64,000 bases of DNA from Marsupella aquatica (GCA_973895155.1 OZ316895.1:19022508-19086507), one strand, 5' to 3'; counted from the first letter of the stretch, positions 1 to 50,740 are shown. A program made the numbers and translations. The notes: a model not told the origin generated them from the letters alone.

Positions 1-1954
1 GATAGTTATGATCGTAAATATGCGCACTAAAAGTAATCAAGTCTTTTGTGAGTCGTTTCATCACATCAAAACTTACCCAAGAACCTTCGAGACTTCCACC
101 AGGTTGCATTTGTCTCAAAAGATCGACGCCTGATCCATGGCCGATCGAAGTCATCTTGAATATGTGAGGACGGTCTTCTTGAGACCCTTGACCTGGTAGG
201 AGGTACCTTTGGAGGAAAGGTATGTTGACATTTCTTTGATACCGAACAAGAAAATCTAGTTCACCTCGACCTTTCTGGTCCTGTCTAACACTACGAAAGA
301 GGGACGCAAACTTCTGGGGTGTGGAAACTACCATGAGCGACTCAAATATCTCGGTTTCTTCAATATCTTGAATATCTTCCACACTTTCATACAAGGACTT
401 TACAAAAGACCCTGTTGCCACATTTTTTACACCAACAGGAGTGAAAATTGGATTTCCTTCCAATTTCTTTTTGATAACCTCCTCAACAATCTTCTCTGCG
501 CTCCAAGAAAACACCTTTCTTGAAGGATGGTTGTGCATCCCCATATGAATTGCCAAGCGGGACATGTGAGTACAGGTTTCTGAGTCAACTAGAAGCTAGG
601 GGTACATGTAAAATAACCTTGCTGGACAAGATTGGACACAAAACGGAACTTGATCACAAAATTGGCAAACAACTCCACCTTCGTCAAGGAAGGAGCCAAC
701 ACGATGTTGCCCGCCAAGTTTAGGGGTTCCACCCCAGGCCTTCTGGTTCCTCCTTTTCTTCCGTCGAAAATAGTCGCAAGTATTATTCCTACACTCAATG
801 GAACCAGTGCACATTACTTTACCAAATTCCCAATATTTCTTGGGATGAACATTAGCTGATGTAGGAAATATTCTGGTCCAGATGTAGCAATCCTTCGACC
901 GGTCCATGTCGCGTAGACGTGACCCCTTTGAAAGAGCTCCCGTAGGAGGCAACTCGAATACAATATTTCCATTGTATTTCTTTGGCAAACAACCGACTTG
1001 TTCATGGCAGAAGTCCCCAGCCGCGATGAACCTCGAGATTTCACTGGAACCAGTTGACTTGAGAATGGTATCCATTGCACTTCTCCGATACACAATGGAA
1101 TTTTTGGTAAAAACTGCTCTAACCTCCTGTTTAACAGGGGTAACCTCCTGTTTAACAACTGTGTGAGGGGGTTTATCACTAGACTCAGGCAAACTAGAAG
1201 GTCCATCATCGTCGCTATCTGAAAGCAAGACAACATCAACAAAGGGTTTGGATGAAGATGGGAGATCGGATTGCGGCGGCGTTGCTGATTGAGGGGTCTG
1301 CTTTTTGGGGGGCTGCTGTGGGAAGGGCATGGGTGCTCTCTTGATCGGTGTTATTTCCCTTCTTTGAGGGGGGGCTCTCCCTGGGGCTTTGATGCTCTCT
1401 TTTGTGCTTTTGGGCTCTCTTTGTGGCTCGCTAGTGTGCTATTGCTGTCCCTGTATTAAGGGCTGTTGTTCCCCCTATCCGTGGGGTCTTTCACGGTATT
1501 AAAATTTATAAAAAAAACCATTCCAAGGAAGATGGGAGATCGGATGCGACTGGTTTTCGAATGACAATAGAATACCGAATTCCTGCATTCAGGTGCCAAA
1601 AACGAATCCCGTCATCAACATCAAAAGAAGCAGTGAAATTAGAGGCTTCATCTCCGTTCCCCTCCTCCAAAATGTTTTCAATGTCATTCAAATCCAAACC
1701 AAAGCGCCCACAGAGATAATTCTCACTAACTTGCTTGTATACGTCATTGGCCGACAATGGAATGGATACAAGGTCACCCGTAGACGGACGCGTCAGAATG
1801 ATTGACCTCGACATTGTAAGATCATCCAACCCAAAAACACTCAGTTCACAATAATGAATGACGTCTTCGAATGCACACAATGGTATTCATAGTCAATAAT
1901 CCGTTTGTTAGAGCCGTTAGAATACGACAGAATCACTACCGGTCGAAACCACAT
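1..1954 (-). pseudogene. Mutator/MULE-like transposase, N-terminal part (WRKY/GCM-type zinc finger followed by start of a DDE-like domain); runs off the left edge
   Basis: ORF 596..1330 continues in frame past one TAG (596-598) to base 1: CTGSIECRNNTC...CQFC...CPARLFY...HMGMHNHP (WRKY-GCM1-type C/H finger), then IFKMTSIGHGSGVDLLRQMQPGGSLEGSWVSFDVMKRLTKDLITFSAHIYDHNY, where FD is the candidate first catalytic Asp. Upstream exon-like ORF at 1506..1880; candidate ATG at 1954. Confidence 0.6.
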
Positions 1955-2059
1955 CTGACACAATAAATGTTTTTTGTCGTTATGTCAACGACATTTACAC
2001 TAATGAGCCTAAGATGTCCATTTACGAAGACCATAATCATGTTTATTAAATCATCTTAA

Positions 2060-5000
2060 TTGAGTAGCGTCGGGCGCTACTCAAACATCATCACTCCAAC
2101 ATGGACCCAAAATGGTTCAATATATGTTTAGCGCCAGGCGCTACTCAAACCCACACCCTAAATTGTGGTATAAAACTGGAAAATTTTATCCAAAGTTTCA
2201 GAATAAATCCTAATGTTTGTAGCTATTTTCCAAATATTATCTAAAATTTTACCAAAATGTTCCCATTTAATATTAGCGTCGGGCGCTAATCTGAAACGGT
2301 AATCATGACATTCATTTAAGGCAAAATATTCAAAAATTGTATTCATTTTGTTTTTTATTTTATACTTTAGGGTCAATGTTGGCCTAACTTAGGGAAATTT
2401 TAGGGTTTGAATATTGATCGTTTTGGGTAGCGCCAGGCGCTACCATTGACCAATATCAGATTTGACCTAGGAATATAGATTAAAATAACCGAACTCTTCT
2501 TTAACGGTCATATTCAACGGTAACGTTAGGTCGCGTAACGTTGAAGATATGCCAACGGTATTCTAAACCACTAATCCAGAATTGACAAGTGGCGCTCAGG
2601 AGAATGTCGTAAATAGATATCAATGTAGCGAGTGGATAGTTTAGAGATGATACTCTCCCCACCTCCCTTGTCCGTTGTATTTAGGCTCCGTTTCGAAGGT
2701 TCTTTGTGCAAGAATTCTCTAGAAGAAGTACGGTACGAATGCGGTACTCAACACGATTGTGAAGCACTTCGTGTGTGGGCGAAACATGGACCCTCTCCCC
2801 ACCACCTCGCATGGGTATAGTGCTAACGGGCAGAGAGAGCAGATCCATTCCCAGACATCCGAGTGCTCGTTTTCTGGATCTATTTACAGTCGTCGTGTGA
2901 CACGGTCTACAGCATCCCAAGATCCTAAAACAATCACGGTAGTCACATTTCCGAAGAGCAGGAGAGCAAAGATGGACGATCTCGACACATACGCTGTGGA
3001 AGATCGAGGAGAACTGTCACTGACGATGTCCGACATTATCTCCAAGCACGTTATGGTGTTTGGCAAGGATTTTCGAGGGCACAACAAAGACCCCCCAAGG
3101 ATTCCAATGTGCCGCTTGGTTCACATGGAAGTTGTCCGCACCTTACAGAAGGGAAGTCCTTCAATTGAAAAGTTGAAGGACTCTTTTCGTAGCACAGGAT
3201 ACAACTCAAAAATTGGAATGTTGTTCTATGTCCAGCCGGCAGATTCGAATGGGAATGTCCAGACGTGTACTCCAGAAATTCGAGCGACCTAGGACCCTAT
3301 GTGGGTGGCCGAGAACGAGAAGTTTGAAGCTGAATGTGCGGCCGATCTAGACTTCATGGTGTTACAAGATAAGATGTTTTATGTTTTTGATGGTAACCAT
3401 CGACTTTACGCATGGTCGATCGTTTCGAAAGAAAATCCGAAAGATAGCAAGTATCACCCGCGTGTGCAATGTACTATCTTCAAGGGTGAAAAGGGATCTT
3501 TGATTGAAATTGAGGCAGCTATGCATACTGTGAACCAGTAAGTCTCTCTTTGAATTTCACCTATCCTTATCTTTTATAGTGTAGTTTTTACTAGCGCCTG
3601 GCGCTATTGACTGACAAATTCTTCTGTAGACTTGGACAGGCCGTGGTGGAACCTTCCTGGATACTTGATGCAGACCGAATTAAGATGATTTTGTCCAATG
3701 ATCTAGAATACTACAAATCAATCATCGATGGGGCAAACTTCAAGAAGTTTGGGCAGGTGATGCAGAAGACTCGAAAAGGATCGTGGTATTCCAAGAAAAT
3801 GCCTCAAGAAGCACTTCTATATATCTTATGCGAGAATAAGATTAAATCATATTCTCGACAATTCAAGATGGACATGGAGTCGGCTACCGCTCAGGGAAAT
3901 CCTTGGTCTCTGGAAGAGACATCCAAACGACATGCGGTCATGATGAAAGAAGCAACGAAGGATTGGGCGATCAAGGTCTCAAAGATCACTCCCTTGTTGA
4001 GTCCTGAGTTTGAAGACTTCATGACAACCTGTGCTAAGATGTATCCGATGACAGAGGTGAACAAACGCGAGAAGAAACCGGATGCGGTTGTTTGTACCAT
4101 GGATCGTGCCAGGTTATTTACAGCAGTCTCCGCCCTCGACCCCAAATTGAGGAGCACTTTGTTAGTAGCGCATTGCACGCCAGAGCTTAGGATCGGAAGC
4201 AGTTCTTTCATCCGCAAAGCGTTAGCAATGACCCTGTGAAGCAGTGGTGCCACACTTGGCAAACTTGGAATAGCGTGGAGGGAATTGCCATTGGTGCATG
4301 CAGATTGCCCTCCAGCAAATCAGTGAAATAATTCCTTCCAATCGATTGGAGGAATGGAAGTGTGAGTCTTATGATTCACTCGTTGAAATAGTGTGCAATG
4401 ATTTCAAAAAATTTGGGGATGCAGTGAAAGGTAAGTTTTTCAATACGATGTGGATGTCCAAGTACCCGGACAAGGAAGACTACACATTCAAGAATCAAAA
4501 GCGCGCGAAACGATATGTCTATCGTTTCTTCATGCACATGGAGATTGTGAAGCCTGACTATTTTTGGGCTTACCCAATTGCTTTCCAGAATTGGGTCATC
4601 TGCATAGATGGAGACATTTTGGCCGAACTGTATTCGATGTATCCCACTGAGGGTATACTTCCACCAAGGAAATTGTCCGAGTGGGAGAGAATTCACTGCC
4701 CTTGGTACCTTGACACCGACAGGTGGGATTCTCCTTTTAACGACACTGAGAAGGATGCTTTCCATAAACTGTCTAAATCCCAAGTTCCGAGACAATTTGT
4801 CTCCGACATGAAGCAAGGAATTGAGGGGGACGTCAACTCGTCGACGACTGAGTTGCAAAAAAAATGCAAAACCACAGTGGTTCATGTTGATCGAAGCCGT
4901 AAACCAAGAGCCAAAGCCAAGGCGGATGCCCCTGTGGCAAGTGCTAGTGCCAAGTCTGGGAAAAAACGTAAGCTACACCTCCTTCTTCCGACTTCCTTCT

Positions 5001-7871
5001 TTGTTAGCGCCTGGTGCTATCATGTGTCGTAAGTTTAATGTGTCTTATTTCCCAAAATTAATGTGGGTGTTTTGACAGCGCCTGGCACTAATACTCTTTC
5101 TGTGATTGACACCGTTTTTAGGTAGGTGGTCAAAAATCTGATGCCGCCACGGATGACACAAAAGTTGATGCAACACCAGAAGTCTCTGAGGCCAACACTG
5201 GTGCCAATCCAGACCCCATCACCCCCGTTGAGAAGGGAAAGGTTATAGTTCCTATGGATGCTACAAGCACAAAGAAGAAGAAGAAGAAAAGGACCATCGA
5301 TGTCTGGGAATCGTCGTGAGATAATGCTTCTGGGGCCGGTATCCAACGGGATGTGGGGACTTTCAAGACTAAACTCGGAAGACACTGTATGGTCAAATCA
5401 AGCTTGGCAGAATTCATTGATAGTGCATTTAGTAAGGAAGAGAAGCCAGATTGGGTCTCAGACGCTGAGAAGTGGGGTAAGGATTTGATCAAGTCGGGGT
5501 GTAGAGATAAAGGAATCATTTGAGGTGGGAAGGAACGATCATTTGGGGTGAATGCGGGTTTCATCTATCTCCCAACTGGTTTGAAACCCACAATTGTTGA
5601 CCGTCGGGTCCCGAAATGGAATGTCACAGACCACACAGCAGCCGAATCATTCTTTTGGGCGATGGACCCTTTCCTTTCCGATGACGGCATGCTCCATATC
5701 TTATACTCGGATGACCACGACCAGATTTCCCAGGTCATTTCTGCATGTTAGCAATCCAAGAAGTTCATGTGCATCAATACGCACAATGTTTTCATGTCTG
5801 TCCCAATGTACAGATCCAAGACAGATGTCCAGGTAAATGTTCTCTATACTAGTGCCCGGCGCTACTCTTTCTTTCTTAGTAGGTCTTCTCTCATGAATAA
5901 CAGATTTTTAAAATCCAGTTGGTTTGTCAACTTTTGCAGGTCTTCACTCTTAGACTGGATATATTTTGTCGGGTTTCTTTTAAAGGAAAGGTCCCAAAGG
6001 ATCCAAGATTCAAGCCGTTATCTAGCGCTGAAGATCCTTCAATCTCAAACCTTATTGGGCTACAATCTTTGAAGGAAGATCATTGTCCTGAACTCCATTT
6101 TACTGGGAATTCTCGACTACCGGTTGGTTTTATGCAAACTGTCCTTGAACTCTTTACGATACCTAAGGATATTGTAATTGATTGGACCGTCGGCTCAGGT
6201 AGTACGTTCATTGCTGGGGATTACTCAGGCTGTTTTGTCATCGGGTTAGAAAATCGTCGGGAGTTTGTTGAGACCGCTTCAAGGATTTTTTTGGATCTCA
6301 TTTCTCCCAAACCTTTGGAGACACAACCTCCCCCTCCTCAAATAACCGGACGGAAAAAGAAAGATAGACTTAGATCTGTCCTCAATTTTGATTCGGACGA
6401 AGATGATGGGACGCCAGAAGATGATGTTCCTGAGGATGTAAATGACGGCGGGAAAGAGGAAACCCGACATGATGGGTCAACGGAGGACAGCGAAGAGTCT
6501 TCCGAGTAATTTTTGTCTCTCGTAAGCTCCTTTATCCTTTCAATTGTTGGCTAACCATCAATTCCACCGGTTCTATCTGTTAAGTACTTACTTCCTCTTT
6601 CTCTTCCGATTCTCTTTTGAGCAGATCAGAATGGAACCAAAGAAAACGGTTTCAACTCCGGAGGAAAGTGGCTCAAAATGTAATCATCACTCCCGAGAAG
6701 CCGTTTGTGTTGCCATCATACGCTGAGAACGTTACGAGGAAGGTAGAGAAATTTAGAACGCTCTGCTGGGAAACAAAAGGACTTAGGCTTCTTAGGGGAG
6801 TAGACAGGAAGTTCATGAGGAACCCCTACATAGATGATGTTTCTAGAAGCAAGTATATTGATGATGAGGCAGAGTCGACCGACAGATCTCATAGCTCCCA
6901 GAATGAGAGCTCAGAATATGACACTGAAGGGTAGCAATTTTCTCCTCTATCAGGTCAAACTTCCTCCCAACTGTACAAGTATGCCCTTGGTTTTTGTTAG
7001 CGCCGGGCGCTATTGAATTTATTAAATATGAATTGAGTTTGATGGAGGTTGCCCCTTCCATTCAATGGTTAATGTGGTCTTTAGTAACGTCCTTTGTGTG
7101 GGTTCCTCTCCTTGTTTAACTAGCGCCCGACGCTCCCCAAAAAACACGTTTGAAGTTTCCGTTTGATATTTGTCGTTTCCGCCATAGTGTCATTTGGCTT
7201 TCAGTCGGCGACTGGTACCGTCAAGAGGACCAATAACAGGAAATCCAAGCCCCTTGTAAACATACTATTGTTTCTTTCAAAGTCCATTGCTCTCGTTCTT
7301 CTCCTTCTCGATTCCATGGAAGGCCAGTGTATCGACGGCCCACGAGAGCATATGTCAACTTCCGATTAGATGGTTTCCGCCATGATCCAGATCATCAGGA
7401 CGCTGGGATTGATGATGACTATCACTCTTTGAGCTAGGGCATTGTACGAGGAAGCACCCACCGGGAGTATTAGCGCCTGGCGCTAGTTACAATTGCACTG
7501 GAAACTTTAGTGCTCCTATGTAGCAATATTTGTACATCAAGGACAATATGTTTCACTTAAATAAAAAAGCTCGGGTTTCTTTTCTTTCAATTTCCCGTTA
7601 GAAGTTATGACTCAGATACCTTGGTTAAGTCCTACTTCTGTGCTTTGATATTGAACTTAGACTATTAATAATCTTTGGTTTCTACTTGGATCTCAGCCTG
7701 AACATCAATCCTATGTTCTCATGATTTTCTCCACAAAGCATTAGAAGCGGCCGGCTCTAGTATTCGGCATGTTTGGGCGATTAATGTTTCATTATTTTGG
7801 GTTCAAACACCCGGCGCTAGTATTCATTATGATGCGTTTGTGATTGTTTTGCCTGTAGACTCCCGGCGCTA
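2060..7871. repeat. Dispersed 15-bp palindrome TAGCGCCNGGCGCTA
   Basis: Full or near-full copies start at 2065, 2129, 2274, 2428, 3592, 5005, 5076, 5850, 6998, 7121, 7471; partial copies near 7747, 7808, 7860. Confidence 0.92.
2786..6934 (+). pseudogene. Multi-exon gene: N-terminal ParB/Sulfiredoxin-like domain plus C-terminal beta-class N6-adenine/N4-cytosine DNA methyltransferase-like domain; disrupted by stops and frameshifts
   Basis: ParB-like: IPMCRLVHMEVVR...IEKLKDSFRSTGY...FYVFDGNHRLYAW. MTase-like: GFIYLPTGL...FFWAMDPFLSDDGMLHILY and LPVGFMQTVLELFTIPKDIVIDWTVGSGSTFIAGDYSGCFVIGLE. Frame-preserving GT-AG introns at 3538-3629, 4968-5125, 5833-5939, 6506-6624. Confidence 0.7.
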
Positions 7872-8699
7872 GTATTTGGCATCGCATAATTATCAGTATT
7901 TTAGGAACGGGTTTTTTTAATTTTGCCACAATACCAGGAGAAATGTGCTCCCAAAATAGGAAATTTTGCTGTTACCAGTTCCTGTTATAGTTTTCTGTTT
8001 GTTGTTTACTGCCTTTTGTAAACACCTCTTGATGTGGAGGAGTCTCGTGGTTGGCATGTAGTTTTACCATAGCTCACCTAGAGTTTGAAGGATGGAGGGT
8101 ACTAAAATAGAGTTTAGTTTGGATGCACATGGGGCCTTTGAACAGCCGGCAGTAGACGTTGTACATCGGGGCCAGGGGACGAGGGAGTACATCCCCTTGA
8201 TAGTGAGACAGACTTATGAGGGAGAGGTTGAAGCTGACATGGACGAAGATGATGAGTAGTTGGATCTGTTTTGTTGTGAGTAGGTGACTCTTTGAAGTGC
8301 AATGAGTAGCAAATATGAGCAATAAATGGATGACTGGTTTGTGGAACTGCAATAACTTGGTGAGTAGGATGCCAGACAAAAATGGCATGTGTGAGTATGA
8401 GAAGCAGGTTATGAAACACCAAGCACGGGTTCAACAATGTGTTGCAGCCTATTGGGTGATGTGCAAGAGGCTATTTTGGATATGTAAGGGATTGTGCATA
8501 GTATGAGCTATATGTATATCTCGTTGTGTGCATATGTTCATTGTGTACTAGCTGCTTCTATAATGGACTATTACATCATAACTTGTTTTGAATTTCATGT
8601 TGGTGTTGCAGTAACAAAAGTATCCCAACATTGAAGAAGCGGAGTCATTGTAGACGAAAGACCTTTTGTAATCCTGACGGACCTAGGCATGTAGTGAGA

Positions 8700-11600
8700 G
8701 GTTGACTTCAAAGTCTCCTATTTCAATGGCTGAATCTCTTGATAAGAATGAGGTAGAGGATTGCATGCCTGATGTTGGTGATATAGAATACGATCATGAC
8801 CAAGATCCGAATGCAAGTGCTAGCACGTTAGAGGATGATGACATGCCAAATCCTATCCCTCCACCAAAGCCTACTTGCAATAAGGCAACTAGGGGGACTT
8901 CTATGAGATATTGGCTGACGCCCTCTGTATACTCAACCCAAGCCCCAAGCAACAACAATAATTGCAATAACCCGCAATTTACTGCGCACAACTATAACTG
9001 GCCGCAAGCACGACAGGGGGCAATAACTATGGCGGGTCTATGGGTGTAGGCCCTTTTGCCAGCTATATGGGTCTGAGTTGGCCAAGTAAGCAAGAACATT
9101 TTAATTTGTTTGATGTGGACAAGTGTATTTTGAGGTCAAATTGGTTGATCGCCTTCCTCAATAGAAGTGGGTTTGAGTGTCACAGTTTGCCATGTCTAAT
9201 GTGAATTGCAGATCCAATGTGGGGCCGTATGCAGCCCACAAATATGTATGAAGAGGGTCAATGGGGCCATCGGGGAAATTCATGGGAGGTCTTGTCCCAA
9301 TGGGACAAGATGGCAAGGTTATGGTGGGTACGGTGGGAACCCAATACCAGCACCAGCACCAGCACCTTCAATCCAACTAACAAAAAGTCTGCGGAGGGGA
9401 GGAGGTAGTTTCTACAACAGATCTAAGTAAAGTAATGAAATCAGGTAGTTGACATAGACCATACGATATTAATGGTGTTAATTGCGTTTCTCTTTACAGA
9501 TAACCCTATCACACCCCGCCAAGGCCATGGGGGAGGAAGTCCTGGATTTGCAACACCAAGTAGTGCATCAGGGAGCACTGGGAGAGGTGAGAGTGTGAAG
9601 TTGGGTACTGTTGAAGTTGATGATGAAGGCCGGATAACAACAATGAGTGCTGGAAGAACGGATGGCGACAACCTGCAAATGGAGTGTCTACGGTGGTTGG
9701 ACATTAGTTGTACTACTAACTTTAATTGTCAGCATCCTTCTGACTGGGAACTGGTTTGCAAATATATGCGAGACAAGTGGGAATATTTGGGGAATTCTGG
9801 GAAAGGGGTCAGTGTTGATTGTCTTGTAGAGTATGGACAAACTATTATGAAAATAAAGAGGCACCGATTGCACAAAGCATGGATTGCTGATGGGAGTAAA
9901 TCACATGCTAAAGCACCCCCAAGTGTTCATGTAGAACAACTACTAACTTTAATTGTCAGTGTCCTTCTGACTAGGAACTGGTTTGCAAATATATGCGAGA
10001 CAAGTGGGAATATTTGGGGAATTCTGGGAAAGTGGTCAGTGTTGATTGTCTTGTAGAGTACGGACAAACTATTATGAAAATAAAGAGGCACCGATTGCAC
10101 AAAGCATGGATTGCTGATGGGAGTAAACCACATGCTGAAGCACCCCCAAGTGTTCATGTAGAACAATGGGCTCCACCGAGAGGCACATTCCTGTCTAGGG
10201 CGGACAATAGAAGTCTACACAAATGATTGCTGCTAGAAGTGAAGTGAAGAATCCTACGCTTACAAGGAGGGGAGGACATGCACCAGTAGTAGCCAAATTG
10301 GTTGGGTTCCCATGCCATACATATCCGTATTTACATTTCAATATGGAGTTGATTGTATGTAGTTGTGCAGCATGGTACCTTTAGGCAAGATTGACATTGA
10401 TAAACATGTCTTGCAATGTTAATGTGCTCCAGAAAAAGCTCACTAGAGAAAAACCCACACAAGAGGAGGTTGTGGTAGAAATCAAAAGGGTAAAGTGTGA
10501 TGAAGGCAACATTGGATCTAAACAGGTAATTTAGGAGCATGTTTGACAATCTGTTATATAGTCTTTCTTCATATGTACAATATTGTTAGCCCTTATGCAA
10601 TTGTTAAATTGCTGAGCTGTTTGGTTGGTTTATGTGATATATAGCAGAGAGCAATGTCTACCCTTACAGAGATATCAGACCGGTTGAAGACCGTGGAGAA
10701 TACTTGGCCTGATGTAGAGATTGAGATCAAGAGTCAATTCAAGGACATAGCCAGTCTGCTTCAAAGCCAAGGATCAACCTTGTGAGTTGCGAGCAATGCA
10801 CACTGCTAGCAGGGTTGAGCACCCAATTGCACATCCTTATGAAGAGGCTGCAAATATTGTGGAAGTTGTGGCTACAAAGAAGAGTGGTACGTGTCATCTA
10901 AAATCATGTTTAGTGTACTACGACTTTACCTACAATTTGAGGAAGATTAGCAGGATGGTTCATATATAGAAGGTTCAGGTTTTGGATTTTCAAGGTTTGT
11001 TACATTGTGCATCAGGTGATCAGATTGCAGTGGCTGTAGTAGATCCAAAGATCGTAGAACCTGGTACAACTATCATTGAGAGTAAGTAAATGTTGGTTTT
11101 CAGAAGACTCTGTTTGGTTGGTTAATGTGGTTAACAATTGTATGCCATTTACGTTCAATTAGTGCACACTTGATGGTTTGTTTACAACTTTAGTGCCTAT
11201 ATGCTTACTTGTAAATGAAGGAATTTGTGGCTACTATTGAGGTATTGAGCCAGCACAGGAGGAGGTGCACATACCAAATCCAACAGGTAGGAAGAGGAGA
11301 CAAAATTTAGAGGCTACCAAATTTTCAGATTTGCAGGAGAAGCAGAGTGATGAGAATGATGTGGTTTTCATTGACTCTCAGCCTCCCCTAGGTATTGGAG
11401 ATGAGTTTTCTCAATCCCCACCACTGATGAACATGGAAAAGATGAGGACCAAAAACAATGGAAGGAGACTTTGCCTTACAAGGCACCAAAGAAGAACTTG
11501 AGGAATATTAATTCTCCAAAAGGGACAGCAGTGAATATTGTAGCATAGTCTTCTAAGCTCACGGCAACTGATAATTCTGGTGTTTGTGTTGGGCAAGGCA

Positions 11601-11800
11601 TATTGCAAATTGAAGCAAGTACTTTCCATGGAAAGAAGGTACTTGTTGATCATGTTGTGCTATTGTTGATTGCTGTCAGTAAGCCAAAATATCTTCTAGA
11701 TACCCTTTCCAAACAAGGGAGATGACCCTCCACACATCCATCTTGTGGATGGTGTGGAATCATTTGTGATGTGGCCAGAGAAATTTGTAGAGTGTTAGGT
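8700..11800 (+). pseudogene. Degenerate CACTA TnpA/Transposase_24-like gene remnant
   Basis: Fragmented ORFs (QMECLRWLDIS...DWELVCKYMRDKWEY...KIKRHRLHKAW...PPSVHVEQW...MIAARSEVKNPTLTRRGGHA) lie upstream of a CACTA terminus. Family call is by resemblance only. Confidence 0.4.
9713..10166. repeat. 227-bp tandem duplication (2 units)
   Basis: 9713-9939 is repeated near-identically at 9940-10166. Confidence 0.95.
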
Positions 11801-12059
11801 ATTGGCCAAGTACAATTTGAGACTCAAATGTTATGAATTGTTTCAATATATGGCTCCAATTTCGAGTATATGATCTTGTGTAATACTATATCTTGCTCAT
11901 ATTGTCCTTGATATCTTGCTCATATTGTGAGTATTGTTACCATGATTGTTAGTTGGATTTGTGCGCGCTTTTGTGACTAGCTTGGCATGAATGACTCTGG
12001 AAAATGAATGGCATCATTGTCTACGGAAACTATGGTTTGCGGTCAAATCAATGTTACCA

Positions 12060-12323
12060 ATCACTCATGGAAAACCCCATATGACTCGAACTAAGTCATT
12101 CTAAACACTTATGTTTGACAGATGTATGGTTCCAAATACTTGACCCTCTAGTCACTAAAATGACTAATGACACTAGTCGATAATATGACTAAGTCAATCC
12201 AAGTCACCACTTTTACGACTAATAGTTGCAAGAACAACGTCATTGATTTTCAGGAATAGATGACCGGTTTTAGTCATAGTCAGTCATTTTTAATGGTTAA
12301 AAATGGGGATATTTCTACTAGTG
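12060..12323. mobile_element. CACTA (En/Spm) right terminus with subterminal repeats
   Basis: ATTTCTACTAGTG at 12311-12323 is the reverse complement of CACTAGTAGAAAT; clustered ATGACT/AGTCA motifs precede it. No partner end found. Confidence 0.7.
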
Positions 12324-13075
12324 AATACATCCCAGATGCCTCCACATTCGTTGAAGTAGCCTACACACAAGAATTTTCTGACACAGTATCCACATGTCTA
12401 TCCAAAGACCTCTCAGATGAGGAAGTAATGTTCAACTTTGTAGACTATAAGTTAACCACGAAGTCAATGAGATGTTTGTCTGAAGGGATAACATCAACTA
12501 ACTAGCTACATTCAGATATCATCGATGCATACTATAAACTGGAAAAGTAAGTAGTAGAAATAGTTTAGGAAACTTTAACCAGAAGTTAGTGTAGTAGGGT
12601 ATTTAAGGATAGACAGGAGCGGTAAGCGGGCTTTTTTATGTCAATTGTTGAAAATGGCCAAAAGGCTGGTAGTAGAAAATGCGACTATTCTTGCTATATG
12701 GGAGAATAGGGTTTTGCTATGAGGGATGCGACATGAAACTAGAAGATGGTAGGAACTGTGCCTTAGGCGGGGCCTAGAGCGAGACAAAGGAGGCAGGTGA
12801 GGATGGAGCAAGCGAATCCCTTTGGTAGGAATCAAGACGTTCATACATGCAAACCAGTTGGAGAAGGGATACCCATGTTCATGTTCACCATTGGCATCAA
12901 GGGAGGAAATTGTTGGGTATGGAACAAAGCAGGGCAACAATTATTTGAGATGACTGGCAAAGCCTTCCAACACTGTTTCACCACTAAGGAAGCCGTCAAA
13001 GAGTTTTGTCAAGGAGTCATGTCAAGGAAGTGGAATTCGGTTTTAGGTCAAGAAAATGAATTGCGTGGCACTTAA
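12324..13075 (+). pseudogene. Ulp1-like (C48) protease N-terminal fragment followed by RPA70 C-terminal OB-fold-like fragment (transposon cargo relic)
   Basis: VMFNFVDYKLTTKSMRCLSEG...N*LHSDIIDAYY resembles the start of Ulp1; MFMFTIGIKGGNCWVWNKAGQQLFEMTGKAF resembles the RPA1 C-terminal domain. Confidence 0.35.
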
Positions 13076-48389: not shown

Positions 48390-50740
48390 AAAAAAAAAAA
48401 AAGGAAATGGGACCACAAAAACCCCACGGCCGGGGGGAAGCAAGCACCACCAAAAAATACGTCAAGACAACTCCTTTGGGAGGCCAGAAGAAAAGAGAAC
48501 TAAGTCAATAACCCTAAAAATCCCAACTAAGACACACTTAACAATATAGGAGTGTCATAGGACCAGTGCCAATCTCAGCCTGTAAACCTATACAATCCTT
48601 ATGTCACAGACAAACCAGCCAACCTCTTCCTACACCTAGCGCTCCTAGCAACACAGCCATAGAGGTGACTCTGCCAGTACTCCTTGCAAACCAGTGTCTA
48701 CATTCTGAAGCAATGATATCCCTAGCCTTAGCCAAACTGATGCGGCACCCTCCAATGGGGAGACTCCAACCCGTCGCATGCAGGTGAGTCTCGGCTTCAG
48801 AGAGGACCATTCCAAAATTGAACACTTTGATCAACTTTTTCTCAAAAATCTGCTCGTTCCTTCCCATCCATAGAGCCCACAACATTTGATAAAGCAAGAA
48901 AAGGCAAGTAGAGTGAGAACGTGTCCGCTACCAGCAGCAACAATGATTTCCAAGCACCCCCATCCCCTGCCAAACAATTGCCCAAGGAACTAGACTCCCC
49001 AATACCCCAATAGAGCCTAGCGTGATCGCATCCAAAGAAGAGATGCGGGATACTTTCAATCCTCCTAGGGCAAACATGACATACGGCCAACACCAATCCT
49101 AACTGCCCACGAGCCCATGAAAAGACCCCAACAATCAAGCGCCATATGAATGTTTTTGCCTTGGAAGTCAAGTCCGATCTCCAGATTCTAGTCCATACTT
49201 TATGCCATTCTGCCTTTGATCTCTGACTTGCATCCCCAAATTTTGTTCCAACTCTCAAAATCAGTCCTTTTGTCCCTAAGAAGTTCATACACTCGTTGGA
49301 TATCAATTTGAAAGGACTTACATATAGCACAGTTAGAGTCCACCCAGCACCAATGCCTAGCACCCGGTTCCAAATCCATCCAGGGGTACACAACATCATC
49401 AATTATCAGTGGCTGATAACTGATATCAGTTATCTCAAAATTTTTAGAATCTCAGTTGAGGAGTTGAGATGGGGCCTTCAAACTTCCGCGCATCTCAGCT
49501 GGGCAGCCGAGGTTGACTCAATCTCGGCTTACCTCGCCGAGATGGGCGTACGGACCGAAAAAAATCCAAAAAAACAAAATTTGAAAAAAAAATTCAGAAA
49601 TTTTTTCCCCATCTCAGCTTGCCTCGCCGAGATGGGGTGTACGGACCAAAAAAAATGGGAAAAAAAACCAAAAATTTTCCCCCCAAAAAAAATTGAAAAA
49701 CCAAATTTCAGAATTTTTTTTCCCATCTCGGCTGGGCTCGCCGAGATAGGTGTCCGTACAGTACGGACGCCTCATGGCGAAAATAATTTTGAAAACAAAA
49801 AGTTTTCCTTCAAATTTTAAGGAAAATTTTAAGAATTTGTTTTTCTTCATTTTTTCTTTTTTGCATCGTAACTTGGCGGCCTCTCTGAGATGAGGTGGCA
49901 GCTGATATCAAGTACACTGATGAAAGTGACTGATAATTGATGAGATTACCTATCTCATCCATCCAGCAAGATCTCCCACAATAAATGGAGTCCAGCTCAA
50001 GTGCACCACTTGGACTTACACTCATCAGAGACACCTCTCAAATAATGCTAGTGACAAGAAAGGTCAATCCATACTCCTGACCCTTTAGACCAACAGTCAA
50101 CTATATTCCTAATTCCTAATCATTCTCCCTAAAGTCCTTGTTACCTCCCCCTCCGGCCAGGAATGAGACCTGGAGAGACATCTAATTGAGTCAAGAATGC
50201 TCCATCTGCCTAGGATCCTGTCCGCACCGGGCACAAAAGAGCGGCCGCGTCTCAAAGCCCCCCTTGCTATCCATAGTCACCAAGTGTAAGGCATTCCCCC
50301 TCTAGCCCTTGGCGAGCACATCAATAAATTAGAATGTGTAATTGTTCCAATGTATCACCTTGTAAAGCCTCCATCCCATGAGATCAAGGTTAGCCTTCAA
50401 TAGGAGTGACCATTTAGCAGTGGGGCAATCCAGAGCCTTCATGAACCATTGAGTGAGTAGAGCCTCAGAATGAGGGCAAAAGTTTGTGAAGCCAAGTCCA
50501 CCTTCAGTTTTAGGCTGTGCCATCTTTGTCCAGGCCACCAGGGGTTTTCTTGTTCCCCACATGATTATAGCCCCACAAAATGTCCTCGCAGAGCGCCACC
50601 AATTTCTTGGCCAGCCCAACAGATGACCTCATGTGCATAACATGGTAGATATGGATCGCCAATAGAACCTATTTAACCAACAGAGTCCTGCCCATAAATG
50701 AGATCAATTTATTAGCCCAAGTAGCCAATCTCTTAGCAAT
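48390..50740 (-). mobile_element. Older L1-type LINE, 3' portion (zf-RVT and post-RT region), interrupted by a MITE-like insert
   Basis: WTRIWRSDLTSKAKTFIWRL...CHVCPRRIESIPHLFFGC (48842..49402); PLVAWTKMAQPKTEGGLG (50329..50619). Confidence 0.75.
49396..49943. mobile_element. MITE-like non-coding insertion
   Basis: 15-bp perfect inverted repeat TCATCAATTATCAGT (49396-49410 / 49929-49943); three internal ATCTCRGC-N7-GCCGAGAT hairpin units; TSD not clean. Confidence 0.55.

Follow-up and report, generated by a model that had tools for sequence, protein, structure and literature searches.

Transposon genes for ParB-methylase proteins are already in print for algae, as is the idea that such proteins bind the elements that carry them. 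As described in the accessible parts of the sources cited here, the Ectocarpus element Sola1-1_Ec32 has an accessory gene for a 1104-aa ParB-like/N4C-N6A methyltransferase opposite its Sola-1 transposase, with self-binding and self-modification proposed (PMC12477816). The Bostrychia Plavaka genes PAG2/PAG3 include a ParB-like accessory gene beside tandem inverted repeats that were proposed as its binding sites, and such genes also occur on Chondrus Mutator elements (10.1101/2025.02.11.637652). In Arabidopsis VANDAL elements, the family-specific motifs bound by VANC lie in the non-coding DNA of introns, intergenic regions and termini, and experiments demonstrated both binding and demethylation (PMC5735166). 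For bacterial ParB proteins the motifs have been defined, and sequence does not predict nucleotide preference (PMC12704722); VirB, an anti-silencer, loads at its site and then slides, dependent on nucleotide (PMC10770331). Here we analyze a 64-kb stretch of Marsupella aquatica DNA (OZ316895.1:19022508-19086507, hereafter the window), which begins within a decayed copy of a multi-copy, likely Mutator-like element (MULE)-type transposon. A transposase-like gene lies head-to-head, on opposite strands, with a five-exon gene for a ParB-fold/amino-methyltransferase (MTase)-like protein (the ParB-MTase gene), and a palindrome, TAGCGCCNGGCGCTA, recurs through the non-coding DNA of the element. The repeat is real, conserved and probably functional. 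We favor, with moderate confidence, the reading that the palindromes are family-specific binding sites of the element's own ParB-fold protein, serving self-recognition and probably anti-silencing.

The palindrome is a word of 15 bases, two 7-bp arms around a one-base center. A pattern scan of the window allowing up to 2 mismatches found 11 copies, 5 of them exact, all within 2065–7485 (Table 1) and none outside that interval. Shuffled sequence gave a mean of 0.06 matches and at most 2. This bears out the initial annotation on the count of full or near-full copies, on their absence from the rest of the 64 kb, and on the 25-bp hairpin at copy 1, which is indeed an extended palindrome. The central base is free, reading G, A, G, A, T, T, T, C, G, C and T in the successive copies, as expected of a dimer that reads the two arms. 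Most copies have flanks unrelated to one another, and translated palindrome peptides were absent from a set of 177 proteins. Rarity in unrelated DNA had been suggested as a check. The exact palindrome occurs in 85 IMG/VR stretches, of which six (two being the same contig) have a second copy at up to 2 mismatches and none has three copies; the 11-copy cluster is therefore not background. One GC-rich viral contig, IMGVR_UViG_3300044977_000237 (L062, L063), has two exact palindromes 1311 bp apart with similar flanks and is probably unrelated.

Eight bases deviate across the copies. That the deviations are almost all C>T or G>A proved too strong a statement: these form a majority (6 of 8), but transitions already make up ∼60% of all change types in the transposon family, so the bias is ordinary. 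All six sit in CG or CHG context and look like ordinary decay of host plant DNA carrying 5-methylcytosine (5mC). The bias was also considered as the work of a methylase encoded by the element; this was rejected, since host 5mC decay would likewise put all six changes in such contexts.

Placement of the copies agrees with what had been noted from the sequence. Four are in the interval bounded by the start codons of the transposase-like gene (1814, minus strand) and the ParB-MTase gene (2786, plus strand); introns 1, 2, 2 and 3 of the latter hold another four, and three lie downstream of it. All 11 are thus in non-coding DNA, whose share is 0.31 (p about 2e-6), and the 4/4 intragenic copies are in introns, which make up 11% of the gene (p about 2e-4). 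The gene model was built from tblastn with Riccia proteins and from GT-AG ends, the introns being drawn from homology; no RNA record appeared among the listed holders of the gene sequence. The second acceptor of intron 2 (5125) preserves the frame of exon 3.

Conservation of the motif in other copies of the element had also been proposed as a check. Contigs of organisms A, B and C were compared over 2045–2460 (416 bp with 60 motif bases, 20% share). Of 49 difference rows, the 40 listed fall at 38 places, only one of which (2279) is in a motif versus 5.5 expected, at p=0.016, a value that would rise to at least 0.07 with three or more of the nine further rows in motifs and that treats as separate events contigs that are not independent. 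The change at 2279 restores a perfect palindrome. In the single organism C contig, with 16 differences, all listed, copy 3 is perfect. The edges of motifs (2084, 2143 and 2442) are where several partial matches break off; a loose contig end has one more near copy, and copy 2 takes part in a 53-bp tandem gain. From the scarcity of variable motif bases, the edge-ending matches and the tandem gain, the palindrome behaves as the conserved core of a variable region. At a loose end (2447, run X4), sequence matching the copia-type long terminal repeat (LTR) at window 15585 is inserted just after copy 4 in another copy of the element.

A metagenome scan for related loci returned four (L001–L004, each 1.2–1.8 kb) among 42 pattern matches, and intron 1 has the same position in all of them. 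The window's full word was absent from L001–L004 even at up to 3 mismatches. Instead, intron 1 of L002 holds two copies of a different palindrome, ATCTCGGC-N7-GCCGAGAT, and L003 has a 15-of-18 copy of this second word at nearly the same offset. L001, in which intron 1 is incomplete in the contig, carries at 119–135, upstream of its ParB gene, the 8-base right half of the window's palindrome (shuffle chance about 0.01). In a tree of 56 ParB domains, from which A1 rows of 120 residues or fewer were left out, L002 and L003 form a clade (100/100) apart from the window protein. The co-variation of motif with protein subfamily that had been suggested as a check is seen for two subfamilies: within one and the same intron, the two ParB subfamilies carry words of different type, a pattern expected of cognate sites. 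In IMG/VR the second word has three single matches, all in GC-rich contigs. It also occurs in the window itself, as three full copies and one partial copy at 49492–49747, within a ∼540-bp insert (49395–49935) that resembles a miniature inverted-repeat transposable element (MITE) and lies inside a relic of a long interspersed nuclear element. This insert has 15-bp inverted ends, AT-rich spacers and the second-word cluster; no target duplication was recognized at it.

The ParB-MTase protein itself has relatives in land plants. Exon 1 has 193 relatives at E≤0.001; of 10 looked up, the five with species names are from Riccia sorocarpa and two Adiantum species. Full-length homologs were all from R. 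sorocarpa (24/24), the Riccia proteins being 1191–1244 aa long. At least 24 ParB-MTase-like proteins of this species are annotated as hypothetical, and several are mislabelled 'Trimethylguanosine synthase' in UniRef. A word-based search with exon 1 among longer proteins gave no homolog among 527 candidates, and no relatives of the ParB domain were found in viral_contigs or genome_contigs. Pfam has no family for exon 1, PHROGs gave a weak ParB match (E=0.06) and sequence searches of the PDB nothing meaningful. The structural model of exon 1 has a predicted local distance difference test (pLDDT) score >90 over most of residues 101–270, and its top matches (Foldseek, VIA) are ParB, KorB, PadC, Noc and sulfiredoxin (Srx). 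The N-terminal domain is accordingly modelled as having a ParB/sulfiredoxin-like fold. The Box II nucleotide motif GxxR is present in 43 of 52 aligned homologs and the exon-end Asn in 51 of 52; in the element's protein Box II reads DGNHR, which we take to be of the Srx/DndB-like type.

Beyond this domain, the model of the Riccia protein P0021 (mean pLDDT 58.6) has a helical region and a C-terminal domain whose top fold matches are the beta-class amino-MTases CcrM, M1.HpyAVI and MboIIA. Pfam N6_N4_Mtase matches exon 4 at E=7e-7, above the curated cut-off, and the S-adenosylmethionine (SAM)-binding motif I lies inside this match (DWTVGSG in the window, DFAGGWG in Riccia). Motif IV departs from the (D/N/S)PP(Y/F/W) of active amino-MTases in most of the homologs as in the window copy. 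Where found in homologs it reads D[LM]P[TS] in 12 of 13 (DMPT 4, DMPS 3, DLPT 3, DLPS 2) and DVPF in one, from a fern; the window copy lacks the Asp.

The minus-strand product of 1–1814 is 46% identical to the protein P0177 over 368 aa, its N-terminus matching P0177 residues 1–83. Beyond the matched part P0177 shows by eye the pattern xSFD..FMAD..DAFH, which we take to be the C/D-x-x-H signature of a MULE-type DDE transposase; it has no Pfam MULE hit. Pfam has no family for the transposase pieces, and no relatives of them were found in viral_contigs. In contigs of four public runs, depth over 1–12600 is tens of times that of contigs matching the window exactly; contig depth is not a copy number, and shows only that the transposon family is multi-copy. 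The left end of the element lies beyond the window. The likely right end was placed at ∼7.9–8.0 kb on two signs: the ratio of observed to expected CpG (CpG o/e), 0.75 in the element, drops to 0.32 near 7.9 kb, and organism B shows a jump in depth at this point; 8.0–12.6 kb would then be another repeat family, and the three half copies at 7745–7871 subterminal. No 12-base inverted repeat leading from 7850–8150 or 12450–12750 to a matching end was found. Given its stops and frame break (Table 1), the window copy of the ParB-MTase gene is dead.

If the palindromes are sites of the ParB-fold protein, it would bind them as a dimer and probably protect its own transposon family from host silencing. 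The helical region after the ParB domain may read the two 7-bp arms, and nucleotide binding at GxxR could let the dimer load at the palindromes and then, perhaps, spread over the element in the manner of the bacterial regulators VirB, KorB and Noc. With the shared divergent promoter and the introns occupied, expression of the transposase and helper genes would persist in the face of host 5mC. With its non-canonical motif IV, the MTase-like domain more likely aids binding than writes a mark at the palindromes. Being dead, the window's copy could be served only in trans. More tentatively, we suggest a nucleotide-gated ParB clamp that acts as a family-specific anti-silencer in land-plant transposons, loading at a subfamily-specific palindrome, spreading, and being exploited by non-autonomous elements that carry sites only; this is a possibility that we think doubtful at present. 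Several observations weigh against the binding-site reading, besides the sensitivity of the conservation test given above. Intron 4 (6506–6624) and intron 1 of L004 have no palindrome. The co-variation covers two subfamilies and four short contigs, and in the tree the window protein is nearest L001 with weak support (93/79). Exon 1 fold matches score in the middle range (Foldseek E 0.09 or worse; VIA Z 7.6, root-mean-square deviation (rmsd) 2.6, 92 aligned), and the P0021 helical region aligns only partially into KorB residues 52–193 (Z 6.8, rmsd 3.5, 137 aligned), a partial helix-turn-helix match; Pfam gave no helix-turn-helix hit in the protein. The half copies near the right end are probably subterminal, and a cluster of the second word at 49521–49747, in a MITE-like insert without a ParB gene, fits transposase sites equally. 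CpG o/e was considered as a mark of protection from methylation and set aside as not distinctive: the element's value is high, but other window segments reach 0.70–0.80.

What the initial annotation proposed, a cognate site for an element-encoded protein, is upheld indirectly by the word's rarity elsewhere, its avoidance of exons, its conservation, the different palindrome of another subfamily and the ParB/sulfiredoxin fold; that protein may still be the transposase. The palindromes would then be subterminal and internal sites of the MULE-like transposase, used for end pairing or self-activation, with the ParB gene a mere neighbor. We judge this unlikely, though it is the main rival. The half copies lie near the likely right end, the MITE-like insert retains three full copies of the second word, and a plant Mu transposase alone can bind cognate motifs and activate its copies, according to a preprint (10.64898/2026.08.24.746577). 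In the same text, however, AtMu1c transposase and TnpA peaks are at termini, whereas here 8 of 11 copies are internal and occupy the intergenic region or helper-gene introns. The change of word with ParB subfamily in the same intron also speaks for the ParB-fold protein, though it separates the two readings only in part. Either protein could explain the subterminal half copies as well as the MITE-like cluster. Two narrower identities fared worse. A parS site proper is not indicated: no ParA-like open reading frame (ORF) was seen in the window, the neighbors being a transposase-like gene plus further relics of transposons, and the helix-turn-helix match of the protein is weak. Sites at which the element's amino-MTase domain writes N4-methylcytosine (4mC) or N6-methyladenine (6mA) as a self mark are improbable. 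The Pfam match and the beta-class fold matches favor such sites, as do the DVPF of the fern homolog and the CCNGG in the palindrome core, CCSGG being the target of bacterial relatives of rotifer N4CMT in the available text (PMC8885841). Against them, motif IV in 12 of 13 homologs is not the SPPY/DPPY of active enzymes and lacks the Asp in the window copy, and CCNGG alone is no commoner in the element than in the rest of the window. A 14-base target would also be unusually long for such an enzyme.

Two further alternatives are weaker. An RNA-level or neutral feature, such as intron hairpins, splicing signals or a locally duplicated repeat tolerated in non-coding DNA, would account for the common flanks of copies 1 and 2 and the tandem gains in relatives, and paired copies within one intron (intron 2; intron 1 of L002) could base-pair. 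We consider it quite improbable: seven copies lie outside introns, most flanks are unrelated, motif bases vary less than their flanks in sister copies, and 7-bp arms with a one-base center would make a poor hairpin. It is very improbable that the element accumulated a word bound by a transcription factor or insulator-like factor of the host. Promoter and intron placement would fit this too, but the other 56 kb of the window have no copy and the sister subfamily has an unrelated word at the same place.

Table 1. Features of the element in the window
Feature	Position	Strand	Description
MULE-like transposase gene, 5' part	1..1814	-	continues past window's left edge; one in-frame stop at 596-598
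Palindrome copy 1	2060..2084	.	one C>T in the core (2065-2079); arms lengthened to 10 bp, 5-nt center
Palindrome copy 2	2129..2143	.	exact; right flank common with copy 1 (local duplication); 53-bp tandem gain here in relatives
Palindrome copy 3	2274..2288	.	one C>T; perfect form in many sister contigs (row 2279)
Palindrome copy 4	2428..2442	.	exact
Exon 1, ParB-MTase gene	2786..3537	+	ParB/sulfiredoxin-fold domain (predicted), DGNHR (GxxR) motif; stop at 3290
Intron 1	3538..3629	+	GT-AG; position same in L001-L004; holds exact copy 5 at 3592-3606
Exon 2	3630..4967	+	helical region, candidate DNA-binding part; tblastn with Riccia proteins, model of P0021; stop 4237, frame break near 4240-4280
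Intron 2	4968..5125	+	holds copies 6 (5005-5019) and 7 (5076-5090); tandem acceptors 5121, 5125
Exon 3	5126..5832	+	linker, then beta-class amino-MTase-like domain (first half) with motif IV GFIYLPTG, no Asp; stops 5317, 5521, 5749
Intron 3	5833..5939	+	holds copy 8 (5850-5864)
Exon 4	5940..6505	+	SAM-binding half of MTase-like domain; Pfam N6_N4_Mtase
Intron 4	6506..6624	+	GT-AG ends; without copy
Probable exon 5	about 6625..6934	+	weak tblastn match to P0163 C-terminus, E=0.001; GT-AG ends
Palindrome copy 9	6998..7012	.	exact
Palindrome copy 10	7121..7135	.	two mismatches
Palindrome copy 11	7471..7485	.	exact
Three degenerate half copies	7745, 7805, 7857-7871	.	right arm and common flank

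Retroelement relics abound in the window, which is eukaryotic. The second repeat family, at about 7950–12600, is strongly CpG-depleted (o/e 0.32) and much deeper in organism B than in A. It has a 227-bp tandem duplication at 9712–10165, TAGTG near 12587 where depth drops, and broken ORFs with no Pfam hit, which by eye resemble a CACTA TnpA-like gene and an Ulp1-like piece. Nested copia-type elements with repeated LTRs lie within 14150–47300. In the same interval, at 25.5–29.4, 34.1–38.1 and 41.2–45.9 kb there are at least three related retroelement-like units, about 84–88% alike and one of them inverted, with long non-canonical ORFs.

The 2025 algal papers proposed that ParB-type accessory proteins bind and modify their own elements, and the locus gives this idea concrete candidate sites. 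Two subfamilies with two palindromes in the same intron are a natural swap control, which makes self-binding directly testable. If the binding-site reading is true, plant transposons would have a second, independently evolved VANC-like evasion of methylation, built from a bacterial DNA clamp, and with it a possible tool for sequence-directed anti-silencing. The clamp proposal, if true, would put a parS-like loading-and-sliding system to work in eukaryotic chromatin. The literature searched listed no description of the palindrome, nor any ParB-MTase MULE from a liverwort or fern. In the available part of Iyer 2016, ParB-helix-turn-helix methylase fusions are mentioned only in chlorophytes and chytrids; green-algal versions are credited to Iyer, Abhiman and Aravind 2011, which may cover more. 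What is new here is the land-plant MULE-type case, the intron placement and the named candidate sites.

Of the described systems, to the extent that the accessible texts describe them, Sola1-1_Ec32 shares the fusion of ParB-like and amino-MTase domains in a protein of ∼1100–1200 aa, encoded on the strand opposite the transposase of a DNA transposon. It differs as a Sola-1 element of a brown alga, in whose available text 'palindrom' is absent and no site is named, whereas here there are land-plant relatives, a likely MULE-type element and a defined candidate site. Bostrychia PAG2/PAG3 share a ParB-like accessory gene with adjoining inverted repeats. There, however, ParB is fused to a 2-oxoglutarate oxygenase, the methylase is separate and the repeats form tandem arrays, unlike the ParB-MTase fusion and the single palindromes dispersed over promoter, introns and 3' region. 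The active 4mC enzymes Marchantia MpDN4MT1 (10.1101/2021.02.12.428880) and rotifer N4CMT (PMC8885841) are likewise eukaryotic proteins whose beta-class amino-MTase domain came from bacteria, but they are products of host genes, with an intact SPPY motif and no ParB domain, in contrast to the transposon-borne D[LM]P[TS]. With VANC the locus shares an accessory protein on a Mu-like element (a likely one here), family-specific non-coding motifs that differ between related families, and motifs carried also by an unrelated element. VANC motifs are 8–9 bases long, in tandem arrays and tested, whereas here the candidate site is a 15-base palindrome and the protein has a predicted ParB fold; no VANC-type Pfam family is matched by the accessory protein. 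Bacterial ParB/parS, KorB, Noc and VirB share the ParB/Srx fold, the GxxR Box II and clusters of palindromic sites, but the present setting is eukaryotic chromatin, with no ParA or partition role. In design, the locus appears to resemble VANC or VirB rather than a parS partition site, and we class it as a variant, from land plants, of the algal transposons that carry ParB accessory genes.

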